Below are positions 1 to 19,570 of a stretch of DNA of 64,000 nt, one piece after another; the first letter of the stretch is position 1; every line of letters starts with the position of its first letter. The notes under the pieces were generated by a model. That model did not search any database. It was not told the origin of the DNA and saw nothing but the letters and a program-made list of their open reading frames with translations. The DNA comes from Escherichia phage OLB145, in the sequence record MH992123.1. One strand, given 5' to 3'. A program made the position numbers and the translations under genes.

Positions 1-502
1 GCTATCTGCCAATACCACTCACTCTATTGATGGCCTAGTAGTACGTGAGCTGGTTCGTCGTTGTGACTATGACAAGAACCAGATTGAATACATCAAGGCT
101 CTTTGCAATAGTGAAGCTGAATATAAGACTTCTGAAAAGAACTATGGCAAAGCAATGGAACTGTGGGGCTACTATGAGAAGACAGGATTCCTGACTGCTC
201 GTATCTTTGATTATCTGGATTCTGAAACTATTAAATTAGTAAATACTCAGGACATTCTAGACCTGATTGAATCCATGCCTAAGAAGCCATTCCATGTACT
301 CACTGTACATGACTGCTTCCGTTGCCTGCCTAACTATGGCAATGACATTCGTCGTCAGTACAACAACCTGTTAGCTACTATTGCTAAGGGTGATTTACTA
401 TCTTTCATTATGAGCCAAGTTCTAGGCCAAGAAGTTACTATTGGCAAACTAGACCCGACTCTATGGGAAGATGTATTAGAAACCGAATACGCTCTATCTT
501 AA
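1..502 (+). CDS. RNA polymerase II large subunit (T7-like single-subunit RNAP family), C-terminal fragment; 5' end lies outside the window
   Basis: Frame 2 is open from the first base of the window to TAA at 500-502 (track ORF 155-502 is only its last Met-initiated part); contains 'TVHDCF', resembling T7 RNAP motif C (HDSF); sits immediately upstream of the decoration-protein gene as N4 gp16 does. Confidence 0.6.
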   Translation, partial: LSANTTHSIDGLVVRELVRRCDYDKNQIEYIKALCNSEAEYKTSEKNYGKAMELWGYYEKTGFLTARIFDYLDSETIKLVNTQDILDLIESMPKKPFHVLTVHDCFRCLPNYGNDIRRQYNNLLATIAKGDLLSFIMSQVLGQEVTIGKLDPTLWEDVLETEYALS

Positions 503-509
503 TAACTAA

Positions 510-542
510 GGCTATCCCTACGGGGGTAGCCTTTATTTTTTT
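510..542 (+). terminator. intrinsic terminator
   Basis: 9-bp GC-rich stem 510-518/523-531 (one G-U pair), tetraloop TACG, then T-rich tract 532-542. Confidence 0.7.
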
Positions 543-586
543 AGTAAATCATAATGGATAGGCATTTAACCTATGAGGAAATTAAA

Positions 587-1426
587 ATGCCTGTTCTTAA
601 AGTGATGTTTCATAAAGACACCAACGTAGCTACTGTACTGGATGCCAGTGGTAGCCTTAGTGATGGTTCCATTGAGGTGGGTACTTTCCATCATCCTGAT
701 GAAACCTATCCCGATAGTGTAACTATCTATCATGGTGTACGTGACCTGCTGTATAAACGCAGTGCTAAAGACCCATCTCAAACTGCTTCTTACCCAAATA
801 ACATTATCAATATGCAAGTTATCAGTATTGATATGAAGGCAACTCCTCGCCTAATTCTGGGTACTGCATTGCCTCGTGTAATCTCTACTATTGAAGGTAA
901 AGATGTAACCTGGCATGTAGATGTTGCTGGTGGTAAAGCACCATTGACTTACAAGTGGCAGTTTAAAGCTAATACTGTAGGTGCTGCTTTCACTGATATT
1001 GATTCCGGAGAGAATCCTACAGCTAAAACTGCAACTCTTATTAACCATGCAGTAACTGCTGAATCTGCTGGTACTTATAAAGTCATCGTTACTGATGCTA
1101 ACGGTACTACTATCGAGAGTTCTTCTCTGCTGGTTGTAGGAGTTCAGGAACCACCTGAAGTAGCTTCTATTGTTGCTTATCCAAGTCCGCTGGCTCTATC
1201 AGTAGCTGATGATATTACCGATGGTAAAACAGTTAAGTTTTCTTCCCTGCCTGCTGGCTCTTTGATTGGTACTCTGTCCATTAAGACCCAGCCTGACAGT
1301 GGTAAAGCTACTGCTGAGATTAGTGGTAATGTACTGACAGTTAAACCTGTAGCCGCAGGTGACACTACTGTAGTGGTCACCAACGGAACCAAGGAAGTAA
1401 CTGTTACGGTTAATGTTACAGAGTAA
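587..1426 (+). CDS. Ig-like domain capsid decoration protein (N4 gp17-like)
   Basis: Track ORF 554-1426; ATG at 587 has GAGGA 7 nt upstream, ATG 554 has no SD; bacterial Ig-like (Big_2-type) repeats such as 'TYKVIVTDANGTTIESS' and 'VKPVAAGDTTVVVTNGTKEVTVTVNV'; position after the RNAPII gene matches N4 decoration protein. Confidence 0.6.
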   Translation: MPVLKVMFHKDTNVATVLDASGSLSDGSIEVGTFHHPDETYPDSVTIYHGVRDLLYKRSAKDPSQTASYPNNIINMQVISIDMKATPRLILGTALPRVISTIEGKDVTWHVDVAGGKAPLTYKWQFKANTVGAAFTDIDSGENPTAKTATLINHAVTAESAGTYKVIVTDANGTTIESSSLLVVGVQEPPEVASIVAYPSPLALSVADDITDGKTVKFSSLPAGSLIGTLSIKTQPDSGKATAEISGNVLTVKPVAAGDTTVVVTNGTKEVTVTVNVTE

Positions 1427-1447
1427 TGTGATTATTTTTATGAATGT

Positions 1448-1471
1448 AGCCCTCCTTGTGAGGGCTTTTTA
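1448..1471 (+). terminator. intrinsic terminator
   Basis: 7-bp stem 1448-1454/1460-1466, loop CTTGT, T-tract 1467-1470. Confidence 0.65.
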
Positions 1472-1495
1472 GTATCTATAGGAGAGTAAATAATT

Positions 1496-1810
1496 ATGGC
1501 TAATAAGAGCCGTCTTCGTGTATGGCATATCCCTCAAGTACCCGGCAAAGCCTTCTATGTTGAAGTAGATTCAGTAGAAGAAGGTGTACGTATCATTGAT
1601 ATACTAGCCAACTATGACCTATTCCAGTATGAGAACAACATCAAAGGTGATTACTGCAATGTCTCTGGTTTACAGATGTATGATGAACATATCACTGATG
1701 ATGAAATGGAAGAGATGGGTCTGACTGAACGTTGGGTAGACTGGTACTATGAAGATGACCAGAGCTTTTTTGATAACCCGAAAGAGTATTTGAATAATCT
1801 CAAGAAGTAA
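1496..1810 (+). CDS. hypothetical protein
   Basis: 104-aa ORF with AGGAGAG SD upstream of ATG 1496; acidic C-terminus. Confidence 0.6.
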   Translation: MANKSRLRVWHIPQVPGKAFYVEVDSVEEGVRIIDILANYDLFQYENNIKGDYCNVSGLQMYDEHITDDEMEEMGLTERWVDWYYEDDQSFFDNPKEYLNNLKK

Positions 1811-1850
1811 TTTCTTGGGGTTAATGACCCTTATTAATTCCTTATCCTTT

Positions 1851-1874
1851 GCCCTCCATAGGAGGGCTTTTTTA
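1851..1874 (+). terminator. intrinsic terminator
   Basis: Perfect 7-bp stem GCCCTCC/GGAGGGC (1851-1857/1861-1867) followed by TTTTTT. Confidence 0.7.
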
Positions 1875-1884
1875 CGGAGTACAA

Positions 1885-2091
1885 ATGTTTAAGTTCTTAG
1901 ACCTTATCTGGGCAGTCATTTTGCTGGTTGCTACAGGCTTTGTATATGGCTTCTTGCTCCCATCAATGATGTCTGCTTTAGACAGCATCATTGTTGTTAT
2001 GGGCTTGATAGTCTGTATTGTGTGGCCTCTTATCGTAGGCCGTATCGTTTATCTTACAGTTAAGAAAAGGATGAGAAGAAAGCATGTATAA
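1885..2091 (+). CDS. small two-TM membrane protein, translationally coupled to downstream SPFH gene
   Basis: Track ORF starts at TTG 1849 inside the terminator; first ATG 1885 has GGAG 4 nt upstream; product 'MFKFLDLIWAVILLVATGFVYGFLLPSMMSALDSIIVVMGLIVCIVWPLIVGRIVYL' is two hydrophobic helices; stop overlaps next start (ATGTATAA). Confidence 0.55.
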   Translation: MFKFLDLIWAVILLVATGFVYGFLLPSMMSALDSIIVVMGLIVCIVWPLIVGRIVYLTVKKRMRRKHV

Positions 2092-2920
2092 GTATATTGC
2101 AGTAGCAATTGCAGGGCTAATCATTGCTCTAAGTTTAACGAGCTGCTATGACCGAGTTGAACCAGGTAATGTAGGTATTATCGTTAACCGTCTCGGTGAA
2201 GATAAAGGTGTGGAAAATGAGGTTAAAGGTGTAGGCCGTTACTGGCTCACTTGGAATGAAGAACTTTATACATTCCCGACCTTTAAGCAGATGAAGACCT
2301 ATGATGGTCTGTTCTACTTCCAACTGTCTGATGGTACTCAGATAGGTCACCAGATGGCTATCAGCTATAAAGTGAACCCTACTAAGGTAACTAATATCTT
2401 CCAGACGTATCGTAAGGGAGTTAATGAAATTACCGAGCAGGATTTACGACAACGTATTGCTGATGTACTTAACAGACAGGGTAACTTGATTAACACTGAT
2501 ACCTTTATTGATGGTGGTAAATCTAAGCTACTGGATAGTGTCACTGACACAATCCGTAAAGAGATGGAACCAGTGGGGATTGATATTATTGCTATCTCCT
2601 GGATTGGTGCTCCTGAATACCCTGACAACGTTAAACGTGCCATTAATGCCAAAGTAGAAGCTACTCAGAAAACTCTGCAACGTGAGCAAGAGATTCAGCA
2701 ACGTGTAGCTGAAGCTAATATGGAACGTGAACAAGCTAAGGGTGTAGCAGATGCTATTCTGATTAAGGCTAAAGCAGAGGCTGACGCTATTCGTTTACGT
2801 GGTGAAGCACTCACCGAGAACCCAAATGTAATGCAACTGGAAGCCATTAATAAGTGGAATGGTACATTACCTACCACAATGATTCCTGGGGCTACTACAC
2901 CTTTCGTTAATGTGAAATAA
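2084..2920 (+). CDS. SPFH/band-7 (stomatin/prohibitin-like) domain lipoprotein
   Basis: N-terminal signal with lipobox 'LSLTSC'; SPFH-like core; C-terminal coiled coil 'KAKAEADAIRLRGEALTENPNVMQLEAINKWNGTLP', resembling the prohibitin/HflC C-terminus. Confidence 0.6.
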   Translation: MYKYIAVAIAGLIIALSLTSCYDRVEPGNVGIIVNRLGEDKGVENEVKGVGRYWLTWNEELYTFPTFKQMKTYDGLFYFQLSDGTQIGHQMAISYKVNPTKVTNIFQTYRKGVNEITEQDLRQRIADVLNRQGNLINTDTFIDGGKSKLLDSVTDTIRKEMEPVGIDIIAISWIGAPEYPDNVKRAINAKVEATQKTLQREQEIQQRVAEANMEREQAKGVADAILIKAKAEADAIRLRGEALTENPNVMQLEAINKWNGTLPTTMIPGATTPFVNVK

Positions 2921-2926
2921 CTAAGC

Positions 2927-2957
2927 AAACCCACCATTACGGTGGGTTTATTTTTTT
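2927..2957 (+). terminator. intrinsic terminator
   Basis: 9-bp stem AAACCCACC/GGTGGGTTT (2927-2935/2941-2949), then TTTTTTT. Confidence 0.7.
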
Positions 2958-2983
2958 GAAGTTATCTAACACTGGGTATTCCT

Positions 2984-3208
2984 ATGAAAGTAAATGTTTT
3001 ACGTCGTAAGAAAGTTCCTTTCTTTCAAATCAATTGTGGTTCATGTTTTCAACACGATGATGACTACTATATGAAGTGTAGTTATCAATCTAAAGAACAC
3101 TTCTACGGTGTGAATTTACAAACAGGGCATCTGTTCACATTTGATAATAATGACTTTGTTTATCCTGTGACTTTAGAAGCATGTATTCCTGACCCGCTTA
3201 ATAAATAG
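2984..3208 (+). CDS. hypothetical Cys-rich small protein
   Basis: 74-aa ORF; 'CGSCFQHDDDYYMKC' suggests a small zinc-binding motif. Confidence 0.4.
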   Translation: MKVNVLRRKKVPFFQINCGSCFQHDDDYYMKCSYQSKEHFYGVNLQTGHLFTFDNNDFVYPVTLEACIPDPLNK

Positions 3209-3209
3209 T

Positions 3210-3566
3210 ATGGCTCAAGAAAAGAATCGTCGTCAGACACTTATCGAACGTATTCAGGCCAGAATCAAATTACAGGACTTAGGCTATACCGTTAATGGTC
3301 AGCCTAGTCTCTGTCACATCTGGACTGGTTCACATTCAGGTAATGGACGTGGTGGGCAATATGGCAGGATTTCCGTGAATGGAGTTACCTCTGCAACTCA
3401 CATTATTGCCTATACCCATTATCATGGTTATATCCCCAATAAGATGCAAGTAGACCATCTCTGTAATAACCGTCTGTGCTGTAACCCTGAACATCTTGAA
3501 TTGGTTACTCACCAAGAGAACCAGAGAAGAAGGGCTAAGCGTTCTAAATCTAAAGGAAATAAATAA
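3210..3566 (+). CDS. HNH homing endonuclease
   Basis: 'HIIAYTHYHGYIPNKMQVDHLCNNRLCCNPEHLELVTHQENQ' is a complete HNH_3-type motif with a basic C-terminal tail. Confidence 0.75.
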   Translation: MAQEKNRRQTLIERIQARIKLQDLGYTVNGQPSLCHIWTGSHSGNGRGGQYGRISVNGVTSATHIIAYTHYHGYIPNKMQVDHLCNNRLCCNPEHLELVTHQENQRRRAKRSKSKGNK

Positions 3567-3737
3567 ATGATTAAAAAACTTATTTGTAAACTTATTGCAG
3601 CAATCTTAATTAGTATTATTGGTATTGCATGGGTAATTTCTACGCCAGATAACGTTATGCAACAAATTTATTATGCTGTGTATACATCAACCTCTTTTGT
3701 TTGGGTTTATGTAATGTACCGTATTTGCAGCGACTAA
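3567..3737 (+). CDS. small membrane protein (56 aa), not in the ORF track
   Basis: ATG 3567 directly after the HNH stop with AAGGAAA 8 nt upstream; 'MIKKLICKLIAAILISIIGIAWVISTPDNVMQQIYYAVYTSTSFVWVYVMYRICSD'; below the 60-aa track cutoff. Confidence 0.45.
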   Translation: MIKKLICKLIAAILISIIGIAWVISTPDNVMQQIYYAVYTSTSFVWVYVMYRICSD

Positions 3738-3766
3738 TACTTAATATAGCTTAACTGGAGAGTAAA

Positions 3767-4825
3767 ATGGCTAGTATTGATTCTATTGCCGTATGTAATC
3801 CACGGCAGGTACGTAAATTTGTTGAACACTGTATCCGTTCAGGATTGGTTCCATTTATCACTTCATCCCCTGGCATGGGTAAATCTGCAATTGTTCATCA
3901 GATTGCAGAAGATTTTGGCCTGAAACTGATTGACCATCGTCTGTCTACTTCAGCACCAGAAGACCTGTCAGGTCTGCCTCGTTTTAAAGAAAATGGTCGT
4001 GCTGAATTTGCTCCATTTGATGAGCTATTCCCACTGGAAGGGGATGCTGTACCTGAAGGATTTAATGGCTGGCTTCTCTTTCTCGATGAGTTTAACTCTG
4101 CTCGTAAAGAGATTCAGGCTGCTGCTTATAAACTGGTACTCGACCGTATGACCGGTCAGAAGAAGCTACATCCTTATGTAGCTATCGTATGTGCTGGTAA
4201 CAAAGCAACTGACCGTGCCATTACTAATAACCTGTCTACAGCTATGCAATCACGTCTTATTCATCTGGAAATGGAGACTGATTTTGATGTCTTCATGGAA
4301 GATGTAGCCATCCCTAATAAGTGGGATGAGCGTGTAATTGCATTCCTGAATGCTAACCCAAATAAACTGAATGATTTTGAACCAGACCATCAAGAGAAGA
4401 CTTTCTGTTGTTCTCGTACATGGGAGTTCGTTAACAAGATTGTTTCCATTCTCCCACCAGGACCAATTGATAGTGAAATGACTCTACTGTTAGCAGGCAC
4501 TATCACTTCTGGTGTAGCAACATCATTCGTCCAGTTTACTCAGGTCTATAGCAACATGGTGTCTTTGAATGAGATTTTGGATAATCCTAAGAAAGCTCGT
4601 ATGCCTGAAGACAATAACCTGTTGTGGGCTGTAGTCACTTCACTGATTAACAATACTGACGAAGATAATCATTCGAAAATCTTTGATTACGTTGAACGTA
4701 TGCCATTTACGTTCAAGGTTTTGTACTACCGTTCCGTAGGTAGTCTGGTTCCAGCTTTAGTTAAATTACCGAACTGGCGTGTTGCTGCAATCACATTATC
4801 TAAATACGTTCATGGTTCCAATTAA
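3767..4825 (+). CDS. AAA+ ATPase, MoxR-like (N4 gp24-like)
   Basis: Walker A 'SSPGMGKSAIV', Walker B 'LLFLDEFNSA', sensor-like 'VAIVCAGN'; GGAGAG SD. Confidence 0.7.
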   Translation: MASIDSIAVCNPRQVRKFVEHCIRSGLVPFITSSPGMGKSAIVHQIAEDFGLKLIDHRLSTSAPEDLSGLPRFKENGRAEFAPFDELFPLEGDAVPEGFNGWLLFLDEFNSARKEIQAAAYKLVLDRMTGQKKLHPYVAIVCAGNKATDRAITNNLSTAMQSRLIHLEMETDFDVFMEDVAIPNKWDERVIAFLNANPNKLNDFEPDHQEKTFCCSRTWEFVNKIVSILPPGPIDSEMTLLLAGTITSGVATSFVQFTQVYSNMVSLNEILDNPKKARMPEDNNLLWAVVTSLINNTDEDNHSKIFDYVERMPFTFKVLYYRSVGSLVPALVKLPNWRVAAITLSKYVHGSN

Positions 4826-4991
4826 TAAGAAGGGAGTTACAGACCTCCTGTATGTTGCTGGCTTTAACGGTGAAGAAATTACCGTATATGCCCCAAGTCT
4901 GGCTGCTGCTAAACAAAAGGCAGTTGAATACTTTCGTCCAAAGAAACGTGTAGCCCATACTATTTGGGTTCATCTCGCAGAGGAAAACTGA
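4812..4991 (+). CDS. hypothetical small protein
   Basis: Track ORF 4779-4991 overlaps the AAA+ gene; only in-frame ATG is 4812 (no SD, overlaps upstream stop). Confidence 0.3.
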   Translation: MVPINKKGVTDLLYVAGFNGEEITVYAPSLAAAKQKAVEYFRPKKRVAHTIWVHLAEEN

Positions 4992-4992
4992 T

Positions 4993-6135
4993 ATGTCCAT
5001 GACAGATGCTCAATTAACCCGTGAATATGACAGATGTCAGGCTAAAGCCTTTATGGGCAAAACTGCTGCATTCTTTGGTTCACTGTTATGTTCCCTGAAG
5101 TTCCGTTGGGTAAAAGATGGCTGTGATACAGCACAAACCGATGGTGAGCATCTCGAATGGAATCCTGATTGGTTTGAAAGTCTATTACCTGAATCTCGTG
5201 TAACAGTACTTATGCATGAACTATGGCATGTTGGCTTACTGCATTCTGTTCGTATGGGTTCTCGTGACCCAGAAGTATGGAATTATGCCTGTGATATTTA
5301 TATCAACAATCAGCTTATTCAGGATGGCTACAGCTTTATAGGAATCGAAAATTGCTGGAAAGACCCTAAGTATGCTGGTTGGGCTGAAGAACAAATCTAT
5401 GATGACCTCATGAGCAAACAGATACGTCCTCCTAAAGCACATGGTGCTTTTGGGACTGGCTCAGGTGGTGACATGAAATCTTCCACTTCGAAGGCTAGTC
5501 AGGTGAATATTGTCAATAATGTAGTAAGAGCCATGCACCAACAGAAACTATCTGGTGGCTCTTTGCCTGGGGTATTACCTGGAAAAATGGAAGAAGTTAT
5601 TACTCAATTCCTGAAACCAGTAGTACCGTGGCAGGTTTTACTTGAACGCTTCTTCAATGACCTGCAAGAAACTTACTACTCATGGCAACGGCCTAATCGT
5701 AGATACCCTGATATGTACCTACCATCTCCTATGGATGATGACGGTAGACTGGAACATCTGGCTTATTTCCTCGATACATCTGGCTCCATTAAACCTAAAG
5801 ATGCTTTACGCTTTAGCTCTGAAGTGGCCTATGTAAAAGAGAAATATCAGCCTCAGAAGATGACTCTAGTTCAGTTCACTACAGAGATTGTAGACGAACA
5901 AGTCATTGAAGATGGTGATAAGTTTACTGATGTCACTATCAAAGGACGAGGTGGTACTAGTCTGGTTCCTGTACGTGAGTGGATTATTAAGCATAAGCCT
6001 ACTGCTGCCATTATCTTTACTGACTTAGAAGTCAGACCGATGGAGCCATTGCCATTTGACATTCCTGTCATATGGGTAGTTATTCGTAACCCTGGTGCAC
6101 AAGTTCCATTTGGGAAAATTATTAACATTACATGA
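4993..6135 (+). CDS. von Willebrand factor A domain protein with N-terminal HExxH metallopeptidase-like motif (N4 gp25-like)
   Basis: 'VLMHELWHVGLLH' (HExxH); MIDAS-like 'LAYFLDTSGSI'; SD GAGGAAA; adjacent to the AAA+ ATPase. Confidence 0.65.
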   Translation: MSMTDAQLTREYDRCQAKAFMGKTAAFFGSLLCSLKFRWVKDGCDTAQTDGEHLEWNPDWFESLLPESRVTVLMHELWHVGLLHSVRMGSRDPEVWNYACDIYINNQLIQDGYSFIGIENCWKDPKYAGWAEEQIYDDLMSKQIRPPKAHGAFGTGSGGDMKSSTSKASQVNIVNNVVRAMHQQKLSGGSLPGVLPGKMEEVITQFLKPVVPWQVLLERFFNDLQETYYSWQRPNRRYPDMYLPSPMDDDGRLEHLAYFLDTSGSIKPKDALRFSSEVAYVKEKYQPQKMTLVQFTTEIVDEQVIEDGDKFTDVTIKGRGGTSLVPVREWIIKHKPTAAIIFTDLEVRPMEPLPFDIPVIWVVIRNPGAQVPFGKIINIT

Positions 6136-6141
6136 GGTTTT

Positions 6142-6648
6142 ATGGTTGTTAATGGAAAACTATTGTTAGGTGCTATGCCCATTAAGGGCATGGTTAACAG
6201 TAAACTCAGTTCAGGTGAGACTACATTTGGACTGGGAGAAGCTGGTTATGACATCCGTATTAAACAGGATGTTACCTTCTACCGATTTCTTGGTTTGATT
6301 CCCTGCATCAAGATTAAAGATGAAGGAAAGACCAAGTGGAAGTTTGGCACTTTCACATTAGCTTCTGCAATGGAACGTTTCAATGTACCTGCTGGCCTAG
6401 TAGGTATTGTCCATGACAAATCCACATGGGCAAGGCGTACATTATCTGTATTCAATACCGTTATTGAACCAGGATGGTCAGGCTATCTGACTTTAGAACT
6501 GGTTTATCACGGTCGTAAAAAACTTCATATCCCTGCTGGTTCAGGTATTGCTCAGGTCATCTTCCATGAGACAGTAGAGAATACTGCCTACAATGGACGA
6601 TACCAGAACCAGCCTAATCAACCTGTAGCTGCTAAGTCAGCTCGTTAA
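6142..6648 (+). CDS. dcd: dCTP deaminase / dUTPase-superfamily protein
   Basis: 'IVHDKSTWARRTLSVFNTVIEPGWSGYLTLELV' resembles the Dcd/dUTPase active-site region. Confidence 0.55.
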   Translation: MVVNGKLLLGAMPIKGMVNSKLSSGETTFGLGEAGYDIRIKQDVTFYRFLGLIPCIKIKDEGKTKWKFGTFTLASAMERFNVPAGLVGIVHDKSTWARRTLSVFNTVIEPGWSGYLTLELVYHGRKKLHIPAGSGIAQVIFHETVENTAYNGRYQNQPNQPVAAKSAR

Positions 6649-6661
6649 TTAAGGAAATATC

Positions 6662-6862
6662 ATGTCTATCTTTACTACTAAGGTTAATGGTCAGAAAGTT
6701 ACTGTTGTTGCTCGTAACGTAGCTTACGTTACTGAAAACAGTGAAGGCCATGGTGTAATTACTTTTACTAACGGTGATTCCATTGATACCCAGGTAGGTT
6801 ATGACTCTATCCGTCGTAACGTAGCTAAAGCACTTGATGGTGCTAAAGACATCGCAGAGTAA
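6662..6862 (+). CDS. hypothetical protein
   Basis: 66-aa ORF with AAGGAAA SD; followed by two tandem hairpin/T-tract elements. Confidence 0.5.
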   Translation: MSIFTTKVNGQKVTVVARNVAYVTENSEGHGVITFTNGDSIDTQVGYDSIRRNVAKALDGAKDIAE

Positions 6863-6937
6863 GGTGTTTACAGTAATGGGGCTATATAGTAGCCCTATTT
6901 ATGGAAATTCCTTTCTCCATTGCTTAGTCCCAACTAT

Positions 6938-6961
6938 GCCCACTTTATGTGGGCTTTTTTA
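6938..6961 (+). terminator. intrinsic terminator (second of a tandem pair; a weaker hairpin lies at 6879-6895)
   Basis: Stem GCCCAC/GTGGGC 6938-6943/6949-6954, then TTTTTT. Confidence 0.65.
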
Positions 6962-6975
6962 ATTAGAGACTATGT

Positions 6976-7218
6976 ATGAGCAAACTAGGTATACACGTTT
7001 ACATAGATGAAGCCGAGAAGATATACCCCTATACCTTATTTAGTTCCAGTGATTTACTTCAGATGAAGGTAAACTCCATCATCGTAAACTACTGGTATAA
7101 CGATAAGAATTGGGATTACTGGGCTGCACGACAGAAGAGTAAGAACAAGAAAGATATATTCAAAAGCAAATCAACTCCACATATGTTTCCTTGGTATCAC
7201 AGAAACCGGAGATATTGA
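6976..7218 (+). CDS. hypothetical protein
   Basis: 80-aa ORF; stop TGA overlaps next ATG (TGATG). Confidence 0.45.
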   Translation: MSKLGIHVYIDEAEKIYPYTLFSSSDLLQMKVNSIIVNYWYNDKNWDYWAARQKSKNKKDIFKSKSTPHMFPWYHRNRRY

Positions 7219-7679
7219 TGACAAGAATACCATTTTTAAAACCTAGAAAACGAACACCAAAGCTGTATCAAAAGACCTCAGAAGACGGTTTAGCCTTGAA
7301 CCAGAAAGCTATTAAGGCCGTTAGTGCACTGGTTCAAGGTAAACAGGATGCTGTTGCTTTACGTCTTGTTGTTGAGCAAATCTTAGTTGCTCTGACACTG
7401 GCTCAAGTAGCTAAACAAGAAGGTAAACAAGAAACCTGTAAAACAGCATTAGGTGCTTTGTACTGGTTGTATAAAGACCTTGCTGACAACTTTGAAATGT
7501 CTATGGATAAGTGGCAGGGCATTTCTTGTGTACTTGCTCTTAGAGAAGGGCAGGAATTACTGTCTACTCTACCAAAAGCAGAATTTAAACTCGCCTACAC
7601 TGGAGCACAAAAGATTGTTCTTGGTTCCAGTAAGGACATCTTTAACCACCTCAAGCTATTCAAGGCTTTCTATGATTAA
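7218..7679 (+). CDS. hypothetical protein
   Basis: Track ORF starts at TTG 7191; first ATG 7218 preceded by GGAG. Confidence 0.5.
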   Translation: MTRIPFLKPRKRTPKLYQKTSEDGLALNQKAIKAVSALVQGKQDAVALRLVVEQILVALTLAQVAKQEGKQETCKTALGALYWLYKDLADNFEMSMDKWQGISCVLALREGQELLSTLPKAEFKLAYTGAQKIVLGSSKDIFNHLKLFKAFYD

Positions 7680-8613
7680 TGCAAAAATCCTCGCTGATAG
7701 TATTACTATTTCTGGTGACCGCCTGGTAACAATGGAACTGGTTTATCCGCGTTTCATTCATTCAGAATTTATGACTCACCGAGCACTTAATCGTAATGCT
7801 TCCAGTAGTCGTGCTATTCCTACCCAACGCCTTATTGAGCAAGTTCGTAATGAACCAGTAATGCCAGTACATTGGGGTAAGAACCAGAAAGGAATGCAGG
7901 CAAGTGAAGAACTCACTCCTATGGAAATTAAGGATGCTGAGTTCATTTGGGAAAATGCTGCCTCTGCTGCTGCTGTGTATGCTGAACAACTTCGTCGTGG
8001 ACAAGTACATAAGCAGATTGTTAATCGTATTCTGGAACCATTCACGCATATCCGTGTAGTAGTGACAGCTACTCAATGGAATAACTTCTTTGGTTTACGC
8101 ATTCATCCCGATGCTCAACCAGAGATTTGTGAATTGGCTACTAAGATGAAGGAACAGTATGACCAATCAAAACCCCGTACCCTGTTGGCTGGGGAATGGC
8201 ATTTGCCGTACATTACTAATAGTGATTACCTCGATGCTTATGATTATTGCAAACATCAACGAATTACTCGTGATGAACCAAGTAGTGATGAGATTAATTG
8301 CCTGTTAGTAAAAATCTCTGCTGCTCGTTGTGCCCGTGCTTCCTATAACAACTTTAAAGGTACTCCTTCTACTATCGAAGAAGACCTGCGTTTGTTCTCT
8401 AAATTGGTTGAAAGTAAGCCTGTTCACGCAAGCCCTACTGAACATCAAGCAACTCCTCAGCATGTAATGAGTAAAGGCTTAAATGAGCCTACTGACCCAT
8501 CTACATGGGAAAATGGCATTAGCCACATGGACAGAAATTTACGTTTATACTCAGGTAATCTGTGTGGCTGGATTCAATTCCGTAAGCTGCTTGCAGATGA
8601 ATGCATCCACTAA
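7672..8613 (+). CDS. thyX: flavin-dependent thymidylate synthase ThyX
   Basis: ThyX-type signature in 'FMTHRALNRNASSSRAIP' (HR-x7-S); track ORF 7453-8613 is N-terminally over-extended, ATG 7672 'MINAKIL' overlaps the upstream stop. Confidence 0.7.
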   Translation: MINAKILADSITISGDRLVTMELVYPRFIHSEFMTHRALNRNASSSRAIPTQRLIEQVRNEPVMPVHWGKNQKGMQASEELTPMEIKDAEFIWENAASAAAVYAEQLRRGQVHKQIVNRILEPFTHIRVVVTATQWNNFFGLRIHPDAQPEICELATKMKEQYDQSKPRTLLAGEWHLPYITNSDYLDAYDYCKHQRITRDEPSSDEINCLLVKISAARCARASYNNFKGTPSTIEEDLRLFSKLVESKPVHASPTEHQATPQHVMSKGLNEPTDPSTWENGISHMDRNLRLYSGNLCGWIQFRKLLADECIH

Positions 8614-8658
8614 GTAGGTCTTTTGTGGGTGTAGACCACTCATAATAAACTCCGCTAT

Positions 8659-8687
8659 TTGCCCCCTGCATGGGGGCAATTTTTTTG
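8659..8687 (+). terminator. intrinsic terminator
   Basis: Stem TTGCCCCC/GGGGGCAA (8659-8666/8672-8679), loop TGCAT, then TTTTTTT. Confidence 0.75.
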
Positions 8688-8710
8688 ATTCCATGTACAT
8701 AGGAGGCTAT

Positions 8711-8944
8711 ATGGCTAAACCACGTAAATTCCGTATTAAGGATAAGCCTGTAATGGGTAGTGCTGCTGGTCAGTCACACGAGAAAGGAGACATTGTTTAT
8801 GAATGCCTTCAGTATGATTACGGCGTTGCTCATGATGACACTCGTGCTACTGGTGTCCCACATACCTCAGTAACTCTTGAAGAAGATGGTAGCTACCCAT
8901 TCTTCACTGTTCCTACTCATAACCTGGAAGAAATTCATGATTGA
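8711..8944 (+). CDS. hypothetical protein
   Basis: ATG 8711 follows AGGAGG (8701-8706); the track start 8693 has no SD. Confidence 0.5.
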   Translation: MAKPRKFRIKDKPVMGSAAGQSHEKGDIVYECLQYDYGVAHDDTRATGVPHTSVTLEEDGSYPFFTVPTHNLEEIHD

Positions 8945-9263
8945 CCCAAATATCATCCATGCCAAAACAGGCGAATCCCATAAGCTGTCTGAATATTCCA
9001 AAGTAGAAGATATTGCAGTTTGTCCTGCAAATATTGCTTCTCTTTGCATCTGTATTGCAGAGCTATCTAAAGAACGCCAACTATGGCTATCTCCTAATAA
9101 AACAATGGTTCAGGCAGGTCTGGCAGAAGTACAACGTATGCTGGATGAATGGTCTGAAGACCAGATGTTCATTGATGGCAATGCAGAAGCAATAACCGAT
9201 GACATGGCCTCTGATATGGCTGTGTTTGTATTACAAGCAATGGCTGAAAAGCGTAGTAGTTAA
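8937..9263 (+). CDS. hypothetical protein
   Basis: Internal ATG 8937 overlaps the upstream stop (ATGATTGA); track ORF 8877-9263. Confidence 0.45.
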   Translation: MIDPNIIHAKTGESHKLSEYSKVEDIAVCPANIASLCICIAELSKERQLWLSPNKTMVQAGLAEVQRMLDEWSEDQMFIDGNAEAITDDMASDMAVFVLQAMAEKRSS

Positions 9264-9288
9264 TTAATAATTTACTGGAGAAAATTCG

Positions 9289-11814
9289 ATGCAAGTAGCT
9301 GACTCTACTGAACTGACCACATCAGCAACGTTGGGTGCTCAAGATGCTATGGCCTTCGGTATTTCTGAAGACCCAGCATTCTTCCAAATACTCAGTGCTA
9401 ACCTCTATTCTAATCAGAAACTGGCAATGGTGCGTGAGACATTGTGCAATAGCTGGGATGCTCATATTGAGGGGAATAAAACAGATATTCCTATCCATGT
9501 AACCATTGATAAAGATGGTTTCCTTATCTTCCGTGACTATGGTTCTGGTATTCCTAAAGATAAGATTCAAGAGGTCTATGGGGTATATGGTGCATCTACC
9601 AAGAAAGCTAATACTGCTTCCACTGGTGGCTTTGGCTTAGGATGTAAATCCCCTATGGCCTATACAGACAGTTTTACTGTCACATCTATGTGTGACGGAA
9701 CCAAGACTGTCTATCACATTGCTAAATCTTCTGTTGAGACTAACGGTAAACCAGGGATTATTCCTATCGTTAGCGTACCTACTGAAGAATCTGGGCTTGA
9801 AGTTAAAATTCAGCTTCAGTCAGAAGATATTTTAGAAATTGATTCATATATTCGAGCCATTGTATTACATGGTGAGATTAAATGTATTTACTACAATCAG
9901 TATACAGGACCAAATACAGTAGAATTACTGCCTGTACTGGGTATGTCTTTTGAACCAGGTAGCTATACCCTAGACCATAGCACATGGCATAAATATTACA
10001 TGGGCAGTCATTCAATATTTATCCGTTATGGTAATGTTATGTACCCTGCTTTGGATACTCCTGCTACGCATGAAGCATTAAAACTGGTTAAACAGTTTAT
10101 GCAGGTTATTAACTGTAGCCGTATCGTTGTTCAAGCTGCCCCATCATCACTAGCTGTAGCACCTAGCCGTGAAACACTGTCATCTCAAAAAATGACCGAA
10201 GACGGTATCGTAAATTTAGCTGTAGCTTTAGTAGATAAAATGGAAGCAGATATTAAAGCTCGTCTTCCAAATGCTATTGAATATATTGGGAAGGCTATTA
10301 AAGAATATAGTCCTCACCGTTTTGAAGTAAATAGTTATTTGCCTTACACCAATTTAGTGCCTGATGTTATTGTCAGTCGTTATATGTCTTCTACTTTATT
10401 CAGTAAGCAATATGCTCATCTGTGTAAGAAATGGGGAAATATGGAAATTGACCGTCAACTAGAACATCCTGCACTGGCTCATTTCTCTGGTTCTCAAAAA
10501 GCCCATCTCCGTAAGCATTTAAAGAGGGCTAAGGATTTACGTAATTACAGGGAATTAACTAAAGTATTTACTGATATGGCTATTAAGCCAATGTTCAAAA
10601 CCTTTGCTAAATTGGGGATTACTAAAGGTATTTCCCTATTTCATTATCAATATGGTGTTGAACTGTGGCGTAATAATATTGTTAATAGTGTCCGTAGAAT
10701 ACACTCATTAAACTTCATGACTTATAGTTCTAAGAAGTGCCGTGTATTTGTTACCCCACGTATTACCAATATTGAAGATAGTCTGGCTGGGTATCCAGAG
10801 TTTGATAATCTTTCTACTGAGACACTGGTGAAATATAACTCAATCATTGTCAAAGTTGGAACCAAGAAAGGTGAAGCAGAAGCTATGACTAATCTGCTCA
10901 CTAAAGCAGGATACGAAGTCATTAATATGGCTGAATATCATGAGTGGGATTGTATAGCTCGCAGACGTAAAGAGGAACAAGAGGCTAAATTAGCCATTTC
11001 CAAATTACAAGCTAAGAAGGCTACTAATAAGAAAAAGGTTAGTCCTAATCGTCTTATTAGTATGAATATCCTTGAAATACCAAAAGAGCATCGTAGCTAT
11101 TCAAGTGAGGTATGTGGTTCTCACTACGCTTCTCGTTCTCATGACCGAATGGTTGATGTAGATACTCCCCAGTATTACATCATGCAGGAAGATATTAATA
11201 ACTACACAGGAAGGCTTGGTGTTCTTTCTATGTGGCAATTAACCCCTGCTACCATTAAAGCTGTAACTGTTGTTTGTCGTAATAAAATTGAACGTAATAA
11301 AGCTATTAAGCGAGGTGCTGTTCATTTGGATGAATGGACTGCTCCGTATATTGCTTCAGTTCTTACATCCAAACAATTCATTAAGTATGTCACTAAAGAA
11401 CGTCAGAAAACGTTAAGTGATATTGGTATTTACTCCAAACACCTCAGATTACTGAGAGAACTGGATATTACATATGCCCCATTGAAAGGTCTGCGTTATG
11501 ACCCAGAACTGGAGAATGCTTATCTCTTCTTACAAAGTAGTAGCTACCCTAAGCTACGTGCATTGTTAGGGAAGGGTCTGATTACTGAAGAAGAGTATCA
11601 CTTCCTCAGTGATGTTGATGTGCATTGCAAGACTTTCAGTAAGTACTCGGAACTTCGTAGGATACCGAAGATGTTCCTTGATATTGATGCTGGGGGTTAT
11701 ATGTTGGCTGCATGTACTGTAGACACATTGCTTCGTGAAATCGAACAATTTCCTGAATCAATCCCTGCAATCAAATTGCTTGTAAAAGCTGCTCTTAAAC
11801 GGAATACAGACTGA
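9289..11814 (+). CDS. rIIA: rIIA-like protein
   Basis: 841 aa; N-terminal GHKL ATPase-like boxes ('LCNSWDAH', 'IFRDYGSGIP', 'GGFGLG'); paired with the downstream rIIB-like ORF as in T4/N4. Confidence 0.65.
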   Translation: MQVADSTELTTSATLGAQDAMAFGISEDPAFFQILSANLYSNQKLAMVRETLCNSWDAHIEGNKTDIPIHVTIDKDGFLIFRDYGSGIPKDKIQEVYGVYGASTKKANTASTGGFGLGCKSPMAYTDSFTVTSMCDGTKTVYHIAKSSVETNGKPGIIPIVSVPTEESGLEVKIQLQSEDILEIDSYIRAIVLHGEIKCIYYNQYTGPNTVELLPVLGMSFEPGSYTLDHSTWHKYYMGSHSIFIRYGNVMYPALDTPATHEALKLVKQFMQVINCSRIVVQAAPSSLAVAPSRETLSSQKMTEDGIVNLAVALVDKMEADIKARLPNAIEYIGKAIKEYSPHRFEVNSYLPYTNLVPDVIVSRYMSSTLFSKQYAHLCKKWGNMEIDRQLEHPALAHFSGSQKAHLRKHLKRAKDLRNYRELTKVFTDMAIKPMFKTFAKLGITKGISLFHYQYGVELWRNNIVNSVRRIHSLNFMTYSSKKCRVFVTPRITNIEDSLAGYPEFDNLSTETLVKYNSIIVKVGTKKGEAEAMTNLLTKAGYEVINMAEYHEWDCIARRRKEEQEAKLAISKLQAKKATNKKKVSPNRLISMNILEIPKEHRSYSSEVCGSHYASRSHDRMVDVDTPQYYIMQEDINNYTGRLGVLSMWQLTPATIKAVTVVCRNKIERNKAIKRGAVHLDEWTAPYIASVLTSKQFIKYVTKERQKTLSDIGIYSKHLRLLRELDITYAPLKGLRYDPELENAYLFLQSSSYPKLRALLGKGLITEEEYHFLSDVDVHCKTFSKYSELRRIPKMFLDIDAGGYMLAACTVDTLLREIEQFPESIPAIKLLVKAALKRNTD

Positions 11815-13907
11815 TGAAACGAAATTATCTCGCCATTATTGCCCTGTCAGTAGACAGCCGTAACCTCACCTTATGGCAACCAGATGGTTCTACTATGGTC
11901 ATCCCCCAAGGGGATGCCCGTGTACCACGTATTGTTGCTGAAGCAAAAGAAAAGAATCTTACCCCAGGTAAGATTATCGAAGTGGATGTCACTATCGAAG
12001 CTCAGATTCGTCAGGAGTTTCTGGACGCTGAACGTGATACAGGTGGCTTTGTTAAATTCTTCCGTATTACCAAGAAGAAGCTACAAGAGTTCTTCTTAGG
12101 AGAAGAAGAAGAAGAACAAGTCCCTCATGTATCACCTGTAGAGTTAGGTGCTAAACCCACTGCTTTCAATGCTTTTATTGCTAATGCTGTGGGCAAAACT
12201 CTTGCTGTACAACATGCATCATTAAAAGCACCTGAACCAGAAATGACAGTTACTCATGAGCGTTTTTACGGTAACTATGCTGTATGGATTACAGATGTAG
12301 ACCCACGGAATCATCGTATTGAGGTTATTCATGTTATCCGTGAAATCTCAGGAAGAACCAGTGAATATGTCAATAACCTGCTGGCTCAACCAACCCCATT
12401 CAAAGTATTTGATTGGCTCACAGAGACGCAGGCTAAAGAGTTTGTAATACGTCTGAATAACACTCAGGGTGTTATCTCTGTCTATAACAAACTGGAAGAC
12501 GGTATTCCTGCTAAGGTTGCTGTAAAGGCCACAGAGCCAACCAATAAGGAAAAGCTGGAAGCTGCATCAACTAAGCTGAAAGCTATGGGTGCTATCGCTA
12601 CTGATGCTTATGAGTTTCATACTGACTTGAATGAGAATGAAGAGACTATTGTAGCTGTAGTGAATGATAAGGTGGTTCCTGATGTTCAGAACCTACACCG
12701 TCACATCCGTCAATCTGCAAACCTGAAAGACTATAAAGGCTTTACTAAGTTCCTTGAACGTCTGTCTACTGTAATTGATAAACGTCGTCACTCTGTTGAA
12801 GACCTGATGAAGTTTATGGAAAAAGGTGACCTGCCCATTGCAGATGATGGCTCCATTGTTATCTTCAAACGTCTGGAAAGCAAAGACAATCCTGAACATC
12901 TCAAAGACGTAATGGATGATGTATTTGTTGATTGCCATTCTAAGAAGATTGAGCAATGCGTTGGTATGCGTGTAATGGTTAAAGAAAACCTTGTAGACCA
13001 GAACCGTCGTAAAGACTGTTCTCATGGTTTGCACGTAGCTTCTCTGCAATACATTCGTAATTTCTCAGGCAACGTAACCATTATTGGTAAAGTTGCTCCA
13101 GAGGATGTATTTGCAGTACCAGAATACGATGTTACTAAGATGCGTGTATCTGCTTATCACATCATTACCAAGCTACCTGATGCTATTCGTGACCATGTTA
13201 ATAATGGCAATCCAATCTCCACCATTGAGGGTGGTACGGAAATCCTGAACATGGTTCTCAGTGGTAATCACCCTGAACCTTCCCGTCAGGTACTGGTTGG
13301 TGGTCATTATGGGACCAATCTGATTTATTCAGAACTCACTCGTAATTATCTGGATGATGATGAAGACAGCGTTATTCCAGATGAACCAGTAATTAAGAAA
13401 ACTGCCTTGAATATGGAAGAGAGCTTTACGGCAACTAATCCTAAAGCTGAACCAGTGAAGGCAACGGATGTTAAACCTATTAAGAAGACTAAGATGGAAA
13501 TTCTTAAAGACCTTTGGAACCAGTTCCTGAAAGCAGAGACTTCTAATGAAGCTATTACGCTGGCCGATGAAATCATTGCTGCTAAGGGCAAATGTAAGAA
13601 GTCATGGGCTTCTTTAGGCTTCAGTGGTGACATGGTTCAGAAACTGATTGATGCTCGTGCTAATAAGCCTAAGCCAGAAAAAGCAGTCAAACAGGATAAA
13701 ACTGTTGCACCTAAGAAAACTACAGTCACTCGTAGTCGGAATGCTGATGTTATTCGTAGTTATCTGAATGACAAAGGTATGTCTGATTACTGTAAAGCTC
13801 ATGCCATTCACGATGTGAAACGTGCTGCTAAGAAGTCTTATGCTGCACTGGGTTTGACTCCTGAAGAATGCAGCCAAATTGATAAACTGAAGCATCACCT
13901 GAAGTAA
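11814..13907 (+). CDS. rIIB: rIIB-like protein
   Basis: 697 aa, start overlaps rIIA stop (TGATG); assignment mainly by size and position. Confidence 0.5.
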   Translation: MKRNYLAIIALSVDSRNLTLWQPDGSTMVIPQGDARVPRIVAEAKEKNLTPGKIIEVDVTIEAQIRQEFLDAERDTGGFVKFFRITKKKLQEFFLGEEEEEQVPHVSPVELGAKPTAFNAFIANAVGKTLAVQHASLKAPEPEMTVTHERFYGNYAVWITDVDPRNHRIEVIHVIREISGRTSEYVNNLLAQPTPFKVFDWLTETQAKEFVIRLNNTQGVISVYNKLEDGIPAKVAVKATEPTNKEKLEAASTKLKAMGAIATDAYEFHTDLNENEETIVAVVNDKVVPDVQNLHRHIRQSANLKDYKGFTKFLERLSTVIDKRRHSVEDLMKFMEKGDLPIADDGSIVIFKRLESKDNPEHLKDVMDDVFVDCHSKKIEQCVGMRVMVKENLVDQNRRKDCSHGLHVASLQYIRNFSGNVTIIGKVAPEDVFAVPEYDVTKMRVSAYHIITKLPDAIRDHVNNGNPISTIEGGTEILNMVLSGNHPEPSRQVLVGGHYGTNLIYSELTRNYLDDDEDSVIPDEPVIKKTALNMEESFTATNPKAEPVKATDVKPIKKTKMEILKDLWNQFLKAETSNEAITLADEIIAAKGKCKKSWASLGFSGDMVQKLIDARANKPKPEKAVKQDKTVAPKKTTVTRSRNADVIRSYLNDKGMSDYCKAHAIHDVKRAAKKSYAALGLTPEECSQIDKLKHHLK

Positions 13908-13925
13908 GTAGGTTAACTATTCAAG

Positions 13926-13957
13926 TAGCTCCGGTTGAAATATACTGGAGCTATCTT
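13926..13957 (+). terminator. hairpin with short T-tract (weak terminator or processing site)
   Basis: 9-bp stem 13926-13934/13944-13952 (one G-U), 9-nt loop, then TCTTT. Confidence 0.35.
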
Positions 13958-13974
13958 TGAAGAGGATACATACT

Positions 13975-14370
13975 ATGGCCAAAGTTTATCGTGCTAACCG
14001 TAAAGCCCATGATGACGATATTATTCGTATGAATGCAGTCGGTTTATCATTGGGAACCATTGCTAAAACACTGGGTGTTCACCCCACTACAGTTACCTTA
14101 CGATTACGCTCTCTTGGTATTGAACCAGCCGACACACGTCGAACATTTATGGAGAACGTACTAGCACCATTACCTACTCACGTAGCTGATTGGTTATCAG
14201 AACAAGTAGGACCAAAATATGAGATTCGACAATACGTTCGAGACTTATTACTGGAAGCCTACAATAATCGTCATAATCATAAGGAAACTGCTCATGAACG
14301 ATTCCTCAAAAGATACGTTGGTACAAACTCAGAACTGGTTTCTGAAGGCAGTACCCAGCCCAACGAGTAA
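13975..14370 (+). CDS. helix-turn-helix DNA-binding protein
   Basis: ATG 13975 after AGAGGA; 'MNAVGLSLGTIAKTLGVHPTTVTLRLRSLG' is HTH-like; track start 13957 is TTG. Confidence 0.5.
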   Translation: MAKVYRANRKAHDDDIIRMNAVGLSLGTIAKTLGVHPTTVTLRLRSLGIEPADTRRTFMENVLAPLPTHVADWLSEQVGPKYEIRQYVRDLLLEAYNNRHNHKETAHERFLKRYVGTNSELVSEGSTQPNE

Positions 14371-14749
14371 AAACATTAGTACCCAAATTGGTTGTCATCT
14401 GGAAGAAGTAGTTGAGATGCTGGAAGAATTGGCTCCAAATTCTGGAGAAGCATACGATACACTTCATAATGCCATTGCAGCTTTAACTGAATTGTCAGAA
14501 TTAATTAAAGAAAATAATGTTTATGCACCTAACAGCAATCGCTTAGCTATTCTGGATGCACTGGCAGACCAGATTGTTACAGCAACTGGCATCGGTACTT
14601 TCTTGGGTATGAACGTACCTGGAGCACTCACTGAAGTGAACCGTTCTAATTATTCAAAATTTGAAGACGGTGAGCCTGTTTTCAATGAGAATAAGAAAGT
14701 AATGAAAGGTAAGGATTACACTCCGCCTGATTTAACCCCATTCATTTAA
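14294..14749 (+). CDS. MazG-like nucleotide pyrophosphohydrolase (putative)
   Basis: ATG 14294 with AAGGAAA SD; 'HLEEVVEMLEEL' (EExxE) and 'ILDALADQIV' resemble MazG metal-binding motifs; the first 77 nt overlap the upstream ORF. Confidence 0.4.
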   Translation: MNDSSKDTLVQTQNWFLKAVPSPTSKNISTQIGCHLEEVVEMLEELAPNSGEAYDTLHNAIAALTELSELIKENNVYAPNSNRLAILDALADQIVTATGIGTFLGMNVPGALTEVNRSNYSKFEDGEPVFNENKKVMKGKDYTPPDLTPFI

Positions 14750-14753
14750 AAGA

Positions 14754-14777
14754 GCCGCCCATATAGGGCGGTTTTTG
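14754..14777 (+). terminator. intrinsic terminator
   Basis: Stem CCGCCC/GGGCGG 14755-14760/14766-14771, loop ATATA, then TTTTT. Confidence 0.7.
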
Positions 14778-14791
14778 TATCTGGAGAACTC

Positions 14792-16111: not shown

Positions 16112-16120
16112 GGAGAACTT

Positions 16121-16648: not shown

Positions 16649-16655
16649 GGTCTGT

Positions 16656-19235: not shown

Positions 19236-19570
19236 CCAAACAAATTGAAGAGAAAAAGCATCACTGGTTAGTAGCAGCTCAACTGACTTTTGTTATTCCT
19301 GATAACAAAGATGGTCAGGAAGGTGCTGTTATTGTTCAGAACACTATGCTGCTTACTGAAGAGAAACAGGTAACTTTCCGTGACCTGGGACGTGCTCAGT
19401 CTGCTCTATTTCAGAATCTGAATGACCGTTTTGGTCAAGTGGTAGATGTACGGGATATTGTATTCCTGAACGTCAGCTACCTGGGTCATATGAGCCAGCC
19501 TGACTTTCAGCAAAATCTGGTAACTAAAGATACTGCTGCGAAGAAAGCTAAACTGAAAGCTGTGGAGTAA
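19232..19570 (+). CDS. hypothetical protein
   Basis: 112-aa ORF, start overlaps the polymerase stop. Confidence 0.45.
   Translation: MTKQIEEKKHHWLVAAQLTFVIPDNKDGQEGAVIVQNTMLLTEEKQVTFRDLGRAQSALFQNLNDRFGQVVDVRDIVFLNVSYLGHMSQPDFQQNLVTKDTAAKKAKLKAVE

Follow-up and report, generated by a model that had tools for sequence, protein, structure and literature searches.

Short intergenic elements, each consisting of a GC-rich hairpin and an adjoining T-rich run, recur through the middle region of Escherichia phage OLB145, and we conclude that in phage N4 they quite probably serve as intrinsic transcription terminators, of the factor-independent kind built from a hairpin plus U-run. The DNA analysed, which we refer to as the window, is a stretch of 64,000 nucleotides (nt) from record MH992123.1. 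As terminators these elements are standard signals, ordinary in kind and nothing new, and as predictions they are already known from the public annotation of the sister phage vB_Eco_Jura. Their value is that of a map, namely a predicted transcription-unit structure of the N4 middle region.

All ten hairpin and T-tract elements named in a first-pass annotation of this sequence, nine on the + strand and one on the - strand, were recovered in place. Their GC-rich stems are 6-11 base pairs (bp) long, their loops span 3-6 nt, and in each of the ten a T-rich run of 4-11 nt begins 0-1 nt 3' of the stem. Folded in local context, they have minimum free energies of -11.7 to -19.8 kcal/mol and z scores of -2.7 to -5.6 relative to dinucleotide shuffles, with an equally good fold arising in 0-2 of 200 shuffles per element. 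A strict scan of the whole window, for which we required a hairpin of -10 kcal/mol or better with a T-run directly after it, returned 17 elements versus 0.75 +/- 0.8 (maximum 3) in 40 dinucleotide shuffles, a result that rules out an artefact of chance or composition. Non-coding DNA makes up 5.4% of the window and holds fifteen of these 17. A generic terminator scan of positions 1-20000 gave 24 sites versus 12.0 +/- 3.5 in shuffles. The intergenic elements are oriented as their flanking genes are in nearly all cases, the exceptions being weaker reverse-strand readings of symmetric hairpins and a hairpin at 58054-58075. On the + strand, eight of the 12 gaps of at least 40 nt hold a hairpin plus T-run, and two more hold a strong hairpin that has no T-run. 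Four further elements with T-runs were absent from the first-pass list: 28345-28362, which is bidirectional, and 44976-45004, 38941-38956 and 51262-51286 on the - strand.

The elements had also been described as followed, within 10-25 nt, by a Shine-Dalgarno (SD) sequence and a start codon, and this holds roughly. Between T-run end and start codon we count 44, 25, 11, 26, 15, 24, 15, 19 and 19 nt for the + strand elements in order and 15 nt for the - strand element, so that nine lie at 11-26 nt. The description fails for the first element, which stands 44 nt before gp17, and gp21 and gp28 have no clear SD. In six of the seven gaps with at least 40 nt between stop codon and stem, the hairpin adjoins the downstream start rather than the upstream stop; this count is suggestive only (one-sided p about 0.06). 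We attribute the abutment of hairpins on the next gene's SD to the compactness of a genome that is about 95% coding, in which intergenic DNA amounts to a terminator and a ribosome-binding site only. Five equally strong hairpins stand before ribosome-binding sites and have no T-run, at 13925-13954 and 23308-23335 and, on the - strand, at 45678-45696, 53867-53884 and 58054-58074.

Judging from its sequence, the window belongs to a strain of Escherichia phage N4 (EF056009), with which it is 98.1% identical; identity with vB_EcoP_3HA13 is 99.5% (both for the match to window 1-15000). Window position 1 corresponds to N4 position 6173 and falls within the RNAP2 (gp16) gene. In a gene map carried over from N4 by BLAST, the + strand up to 28333 holds the 3' end of gp16 and the genes through gp49, the - strand holds gp50, which encodes the virion RNA polymerase (vRNAP), through gp69, and the + strand at the right end holds gp70-72. 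N4 is the classic three-polymerase phage (PMC4496689). Its early genes are transcribed by vRNAP from hairpin promoters in the template strand, its middle ones by RNA polymerase II (RNAPII), a T7-like heterodimer of gp15 and gp16, with the gp2 single-stranded DNA-binding protein (SSB) and probably gp1, and its late genes leftward by the host sigma-70 RNA polymerase (RNAP) with N4SSB (PMC4496689).

Public annotation and comparative data agree with a terminator function. The GenBank record of vB_Eco_Jura (LR999871.1), which is 98.6% identical, contains 25 'regulatory: terminator' features and no annotated promoters. These features match ten of ten listed elements and the additional elements too; Jura Terminators 001, 010, 011, 014-019, 021, 022 and 025 are those that coincide with the ten. 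Papers on N4-like genomes routinely list 10-18 predicted rho-independent terminators (LUZ7/LIT1, PMC3715699; Pectobacterium CB1, PMC6027278). The lists for Jura, which cover the same loci, and for other N4-like phages are software predictions in which overlap with promoters was never considered.

For comparison beyond the species we used three other genera of the Enquatrovirinae, represented by PD38 (Gamaleyavirus), Moo19 (Moovirus) and VLCpiP4b (Kaypoctavirus). All three have a hairpin plus T-run at corresponding gene junctions, namely past RNAP2 and ahead of the homologues of gp19, gp28, gp31, the helicase gene and gp48, with stem sequences unrelated to those of N4. Among 16 viral contigs, the helicase junction carries three types of hairpin: GCCGCCC/GGGCGG with T5, AACCCTC/GAGGGTT with T4, and CTGCCC/GGGTAG with no T-run. 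Across six strains of the N4 species the elements are almost invariant. The differences include a compensatory C-G to T-A change at 8664/8674 (window versus N4 and four other strains), a flipped loop at 1858-1860, which reads ATA in the window and TAT in N4, and one disruptive change in AlfredRasser. The loop at 28352-28355 also differs between the window strain and N4, by an apparent inversion, and differences between the two within these 20-nt hairpins exceed the genome average of 2%.

The strand on which the hairpins act can be approached through wobble pairs. We ran the same search under the same energy rules, allowing G.T pairs either in the sense strand or in the template strand (where they appear as A.C in the sense strand). 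Internal G.U wobbles numbered 15 in 45 elements when the sense strand was folded and four in 39 when the template strand was folded; those four lie in AT-rich extensions or separate AT-rich hairpins, and none is in the GC-rich core of a listed element. The numbers are small, and the bias is in the direction expected under selection on RNA, which it favours. It is opposite to what is predicted for template-strand hairpins of the vRNAP type, and argues against them.

This bears on the proposal that the elements act as DNA, whether as vRNAP-type template-strand hairpin promoters, as cruciforms, or as recombination boundaries of gene cassettes like PeSL, which we regard as highly improbable. The early promoters of N4 also take the form of a hairpin, here of 5 bp and with TTTTGG after it, at approximately N4 92-104, 561-573 and 4551-4563, all outside the window; the third, GCTGC-TCC-GCAGC followed by TTTTGG at N4 4551-4563, lies upstream of gp15-gp16. 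With their short GC hairpin, T4 and G start, these promoters resemble miniature terminators (Glucksmann 1992; Davydova 2007). They differ in having a 5-7 bp stem, a strict 3-nt loop, a hairpin that acts in the template DNA strand and a location restricted to the leftmost 5 kb, whereas the window elements have longer stems, loops of 3-6 nt and wobbles biased to the sense strand. Recognition by vRNAP calls for a 3-nt loop, a central purine on the template strand and -8G (PMC3715699). The window elements depart from these rules: loops are 4-6 nt in nine of the ten elements, and the sole 3-nt loop (1858-1860) is the one flipped between strains. With loops and stems at odds with these rules and the wobble bias on the wrong strand, we rejected hairpin promoters of the vRNAP type.

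Movement of hairpins with genes would suit a recombination boundary. At the helicase junction of one contig (L013) the hairpin is kept with the downstream gene despite a different upstream gene, and in Moo19 the gp18 cassette has kept the hairpin and leader that precede it. In T4-type phages, PeSL cassettes, reportedly described by Arbiol et al. in 2010, are said to place a stem-loop and a recognisable sigma-70 early promoter before each open reading frame (ORF). Like PeSL, the window elements put a stem-loop and signals directly upstream of single small genes and may travel with the downstream gene; unlike PeSL, they have no sigma-70 early promoter, and sigma-70-like sites are depleted. A role in recombination would also leave the T-run unexplained.

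The first-pass annotation had suggested leaky terminators or attenuators, and only the terminator part of this suggestion is well supported. It draws on anatomy, co-orientation, confinement to intergenic DNA, conserved position with changed stems, the wobble bias and the Jura annotation. A regulated attenuator or target of antitermination, whose efficiency would be switched by an alternative fold, a leader peptide or a phage factor, is very unlikely. When eight elements were folded with 90 nt of upstream RNA, the terminator stems kept pair probabilities of 0.9-1.0 and no competing antiterminator fold was found; nor did we find leader ORFs or conserved upstream boxes, though a protein could still act as an antiterminator. 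A known RNA family was ruled out, as Rfam at gathering thresholds matched four transfer RNAs (tRNAs) only and no cis-regulatory family. What speaks for regulation comes from the N4-like phage LUZ7, in which ten terminators shift their read-through by at least 30% between infection stages (PMC9163698).

How such terminators would act on the N4 polymerases can be outlined from related enzymes. T7-like RNAPs terminate at hairpin plus U-run signals, and T-phi of T7 is only partially efficient. In the mechanism that we favour, the GC-rich hairpin would form in nascent RNA beside the U-run, and together they would release a fraction of the phage single-subunit RNAPs, namely vRNAP where the early region gives way to the middle region and RNAPII throughout the latter. 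Host RNAP would respond to the same anatomy on the late strand. The hairpin at the 3' end would shield the released transcript, and partial termination would generate nested, overlapping transcripts. A role as 3' stabiliser of mRNA, another first-pass suggestion, likewise fits the anatomy and can coexist with the terminator role. The + strand elements would split the middle region into approximately eight units: gp17, gp18, gp19-20, gp21-27, gp28-30, gp31-36, gp37-47 with the tRNAs, and gp48-49.

The elements share with class I terminators such as T7 T-phi a GC-rich stem-loop with an immediate T/U-run, a location after stop codons, co-orientation with genes and folding energies in the usual range, and one copy is bidirectional, between convergent genes. 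The N4 arrangement is unlike these in having seven to eight terminators in series on one strand, each against the next ribosome-binding site, and the polymerase differs in being RNAPII, the gp15/gp16 heterodimer that depends on gp2 SSB. That termination is partial, or 'leaky', we infer from the seven to eight terminators in series upstream of essential replication genes. Termination by RNAPII at the elements is suggested by the behaviour of T7-like RNAPs, by the N4 middle RNAs, which form 'a series of overlapping transcripts' (PMC4496689), and by LUZ7. In that phage, 14 predicted intrinsic terminators match mapped 3' ends, and at more than 60% of the mapped termination sites efficiency averages below 50%, which gives stepwise read-through (PMC9163698). 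A literature search returned no genome-wide start-site or 3'-end data for N4.

Several considerations weigh against a purely terminating function. Termination by RNAPII in N4 is reasoned by analogy, from T7-like RNAPs and LUZ7. The hairpins hug the downstream start in six of the seven long gaps, a placement that a pure terminator does not need. Equally strong hairpins without a T-run stand before five ribosome-binding sites, and termination is therefore not the whole story for the hairpin class. Finally, efficient terminators with no promoters after them would starve the replication genes that lie behind seven terminators. Because of the seven terminators in series, the placement in six of seven gaps and the hairpins without a T-run, there is a hint that at least some elements have a role for the gene that follows, be it restart of transcription, a boundary for processing or both.

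Processing can be carried further, to a scheme in which the elements are signals of RNA stability and processing that block 3' exonucleases and mark the boundaries at which endonucleases, acting in the neighbouring A/U-rich stretch, cut long polycistronic middle transcripts to leave stable segments, with little true termination. We consider this scheme unlikely. The hairpins do fold in sense RNA, and the five that occupy the same position with no T-run would suit it, as would the LUZ7 3' and 5' ends that abut at 39374/39375; the authors of the LUZ7 study allow that processing may account for some 3' ends (PMC9163698). Against it, in 14 elements the T-run strictly adjoins the stem, a feature specific to intrinsic termination that a stabiliser does not need, and RNase III requires longer stems than these of 6-11 bp. 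The 5' end at LUZ7 PM3, moreover, came from enrichment for triphosphates (PMC9163698).

The closeness of hairpin and start codon had been taken to leave no room for a separate promoter. This claim is too strong: the minimal promoter of N4 RNAPII spans only -7 to +2 and is AT-rich (PMC4496689), and the premise is overstated because the 11-44 nt that separate hairpin from start codon leave space for such a promoter. That the T-runs are AT-rich is trivial. In line with the first-pass suggestion that they take part in recognition by the phage RNAPII, it is possible, if rather doubtful, that the elements are composites of terminator and promoter, in which one element ends the upstream transcript and supplies the N4 RNAPII start site. 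In such a composite the T-run would form the -7 to -1 part, the first purine past it would be the start site, and an 11-44 nt leader carrying the SD would follow. The hairpin or its readily melting AT-rich flank could aid access of gp2 and RNAPII to single-stranded DNA, or the polymerase could reinitiate right after release. Besides the shortness and AT-richness of the minimal promoter and the closeness of the hairpins to the downstream start, a spatial argument favours this composite: the promoter of the downstream unit would have to fire 3' of the 5' arm of the hairpin, which leaves only that space.

A real precedent is LUZ7, mapped by ONT-cappable-seq (Putzeys et al., 2022; PMC9163698). Its middle promoters are GC-rich hairpins, with a stem of at least 6 bp and a loop of 3-4 nt, approximately 15 bp before the start (PMC9163698). 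The strongest middle start, PM3 (39375), lies 1 nt past the 3' end of terminator T41 (39374; efficiency 0.54-0.68), by the positions in Tables S2 and S3 of bioRxiv 10.1101/2022.03.18.484859. T41 and PM3 are the same hairpin, gggccgcttccagcggctc followed by tttc, between the primase stop codon at 39346 and an ATG at 39395. The order of primase stop, hairpin, TTTC, G(+1), 20-nt leader and ATG is the architecture of the window elements. Neither T41 nor PM3 is named in the text of the LUZ7 paper (PMC9163698), where their overlap apparently passes without comment. Another LUZ7 middle promoter, PM2, sits in a divergent gap with no co-directional gene upstream. A late promoter of that phage, PL13, begins directly past the T-run of T46, an overlap that also seems to go undiscussed in the paper.

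Spacing in the window elements can be set beside that at PM3. From the centre of the loop to the first purine past the T-run we measure 14-15 nt for the elements at 1448, 1851, 6938 and 14755, as at PM3, and 14-22 nt overall, with stems of at least 6 bp and loops of 3-6 nt. An A or G directly follows the T-run in all nine + strand elements, a frequency that is, in turn, near compositional expectation. Points of resemblance to LUZ7 are a GC-rich hairpin with a brief T-rich stretch behind it, a purine at which transcription starts or would start and a leader of about 20 nt, the one hairpin shared by T41 and PM3, and read-through terminators that give, or in N4 would give, nested units. LUZ7 differs in being GC-rich, in belonging to the Migulavirinae, in having Drc instead of gp1/gp2 and in having only four middle start sites (PMC9163698).

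Other observations detract from a composite. The published view is that the middle promoters of N4 and LUZ7 differ (PMC9163698). Termination explains conservation of the T-run equally well, the wobble bias indicates selection on the sense strand or RNA and not on a template-strand hairpin, and the abutting LUZ7 3' and 5' ends may reflect RNA cleavage rather than termination and initiation. The divergent gp69/gp70 gap (62742-62901), which would call for a pure promoter, lacks a hairpin plus T-run and has only a sigma-70-like site. As gp70-72 have no assigned polymerase, this last comparison does not discriminate. Tandem TTTAGACT repeats lie in this gap, together with an inverted repeat, AGACT...AGTCT, and the sigma-70-like TTTAGA-16-TACAAT (62827-62854).

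A more specific form of the composite makes the elements bifunctional modules that stop and restart transcription. The RNA hairpin would free the transcript, and the T-run, AT-rich, readily melted and coated by gp2, would be the long-sought minimal middle promoter for RNAPII/gp2; the next RNA would begin at the first purine beyond the T-run, perhaps made by the very polymerase that terminated there. We put this forward as speculative and on balance improbable. If true, it would explain the missing middle-promoter consensus in N4-like genomes, the position of PM3 1 nt past T41, and the placement of hairpins relative to start codons. The exact coordinates of the elements bear on an old problem, which is how the promoter-poor, T7-like N4 RNAPII chooses its start sites with gp2. 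Should 5'-triphosphate ends fall immediately past the T-runs, as at LUZ7 PM3/T41, a single element would be terminator and promoter at once; for phages with single-subunit RNAPs, such a regulatory design would be both unusual and compact.

The sequence that some elements share just 3' of the T-tract, which the first-pass annotation had pointed out, is indeed present as TTTT-A-GTATCT-ATAGGAG (1467-1485) and TTTTT-GTATCT-GGAG (14772-14786). Past the T-run, GTATCT lies at 1472 and 14777, and TTATCT occurs at 2961. In the nine leaders GTATCT is found twice versus 0.06 expected (post hoc and uncorrected), and the shorter TATCT three times versus 0.36 expected there and eight times versus 2.9 in short N4 intergenic DNA (both post hoc). 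The shared sequence is absent from most orthologous leaders in PD38, VLCpiP4b and Moo19; Moo19 keeps it with the gp18 cassette. With counts made post hoc and the motif missing from most orthologous leaders, we rejected it as a general promoter and retain it as a lead to an N4-specific signal. Outside the window, AACTATCT occurs at N4 538-545, 1111-1118 and 2571-2578, each 10-25 nt past an early terminator (five copies in 36 kb, again a post hoc count), and PD38 conserves the first of these. We regard AACTATCT as a candidate motif, specific to N4 and related to GTATCT, for regulation or for start sites.

Leaders show other common features. A nearly identical leader, TTTCTTTTA(A)TGAACCAA(G/T)GAGG, follows the elements before gp71 (63392-63414, + strand) and gp54 (44953-44975, - strand); it could be a shared late promoter or -10-like box, or a shared leader. 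An extended ribosome-binding site of the form (A/T)CTGGAGA is seen in + strand leaders, for example at 3756-3763, 9277-9284 and 14780-14787. TGGAG occurs nine times versus 1.5 expected in N4 intergenic DNA, and pairing with 16S RNA leaves the CT unexplained.

The individual elements are as follows, beginning with the + strand of the middle region, where each of the seven terminators up to the helicase gene is also annotated in Jura. The element at 508-542, after gp16 (RNAP2) and before gp17, closes the early operon that runs from Pe3, the third early promoter, to gp15-gp16. Its stem (508/510-531/533) is followed by TTTATTTTTTT, it folds at -19.8 kcal/mol (z -4.8), and it has positional orthologues in PD38, Moo19 and VLCpiP4b. 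Between gp17 and gp18, the element at 1448-1470 has a 7-bp stem (1448-1466), TTTT and then AGTATCTATAGGAG; Moo19 has the same hairpin and leader, and the adjoining coding DNA has diverged. The gp18/gp19 element at 1851-1873 combines a 7-bp stem (1851-1867) and 3-nt loop with TTTTTT, and the SD of gp19 begins 2 nt past this T-run. Between gp20 and gp21, at 2927-2957, a 9-bp stem (2927-2949) precedes ATTTTTTT, and the element doubles as a weak terminator when read on the reverse strand. The gp27/gp28 element lies at 6938-6960 (stem 6938-6954), with a weaker hairpin upstream of it at 6879-6895; Jura annotates both. Between gp30 (thyX-like) and gp31, at 8659-8686, an 8-bp stem (8659-8679) is followed by TTTTTTT. 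The element between gp36 and the helicase gene (gp37), at 14753-14776, has its stem at 14755-14771, followed by TTTTT and GTATCTGGAG.

Further along the + strand, the element at 27426-27460 (stem 27427-27452; Jura Terminator001) lies after the tRNA cluster and before gp48. At 28345-28369 a bidirectional terminator (stem 28345-28362; Jura Terminators 002-004) separates the convergent genes gp49 (+) and gp50 (vRNAP, -). Near the right genome end, a terminator-like element precedes gp71 on the + strand at 63374-63401 (stem 63374-63391; Jura Terminator011). The late (-) strand has terminators between gp64 and gp63 at 52517-52537 (stem 52522-52537; Jura Terminator010), between gp55 and gp54 at 44968-45004 (-19.2 kcal/mol; Jura Terminator006), and between gp51 and the vRNAP gene gp50 at 38937-38956 (Jura Terminator005). 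Two of the strong + strand hairpins that do not have a proper T-run also merit mention. One, at 13925-13954 (-16.6 kcal/mol), stands 20 nt before the gp35 start. The other, at 23308-23335 (-16.1 kcal/mol), stands 19 nt before the gp44 start, at a junction orthologous to that between primase and gp64 in LUZ7, the map site of T41 and PM3.

Promoter-like sites of the sigma-70 type are approximately two- to four-fold less frequent than in shuffles in three segments (28 versus 55.6, 11 versus 41.5 and 22 versus 47.0), and the depletion is less clear in a fourth (10 versus 15.7). This depletion suggests that host promoters are avoided.

Within the 1.5-kb gap between gp47 and gp48, genes for tRNA Asn-GTT, Ser-TGA, Thr-TGT and Pro-TGG lie at 26299-26978 on the + strand. 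These four tRNAs are known for N4, and the feature table of EF056009 does not include them; the element at 27427 is the first terminator 3' of the cluster. In the 167-nt gap between gp24 and gp25 (4811-4990, + strand), other records of the N4 species annotate a 59-codon ORF that overlaps the end of gp24. Finally, gp36 (14294-14749, + strand) is 81.9% identical to its N4 counterpart versus 97-99% for neighbouring genes, which marks it as a local mosaic replacement that ends just 5' of the helicase terminator.

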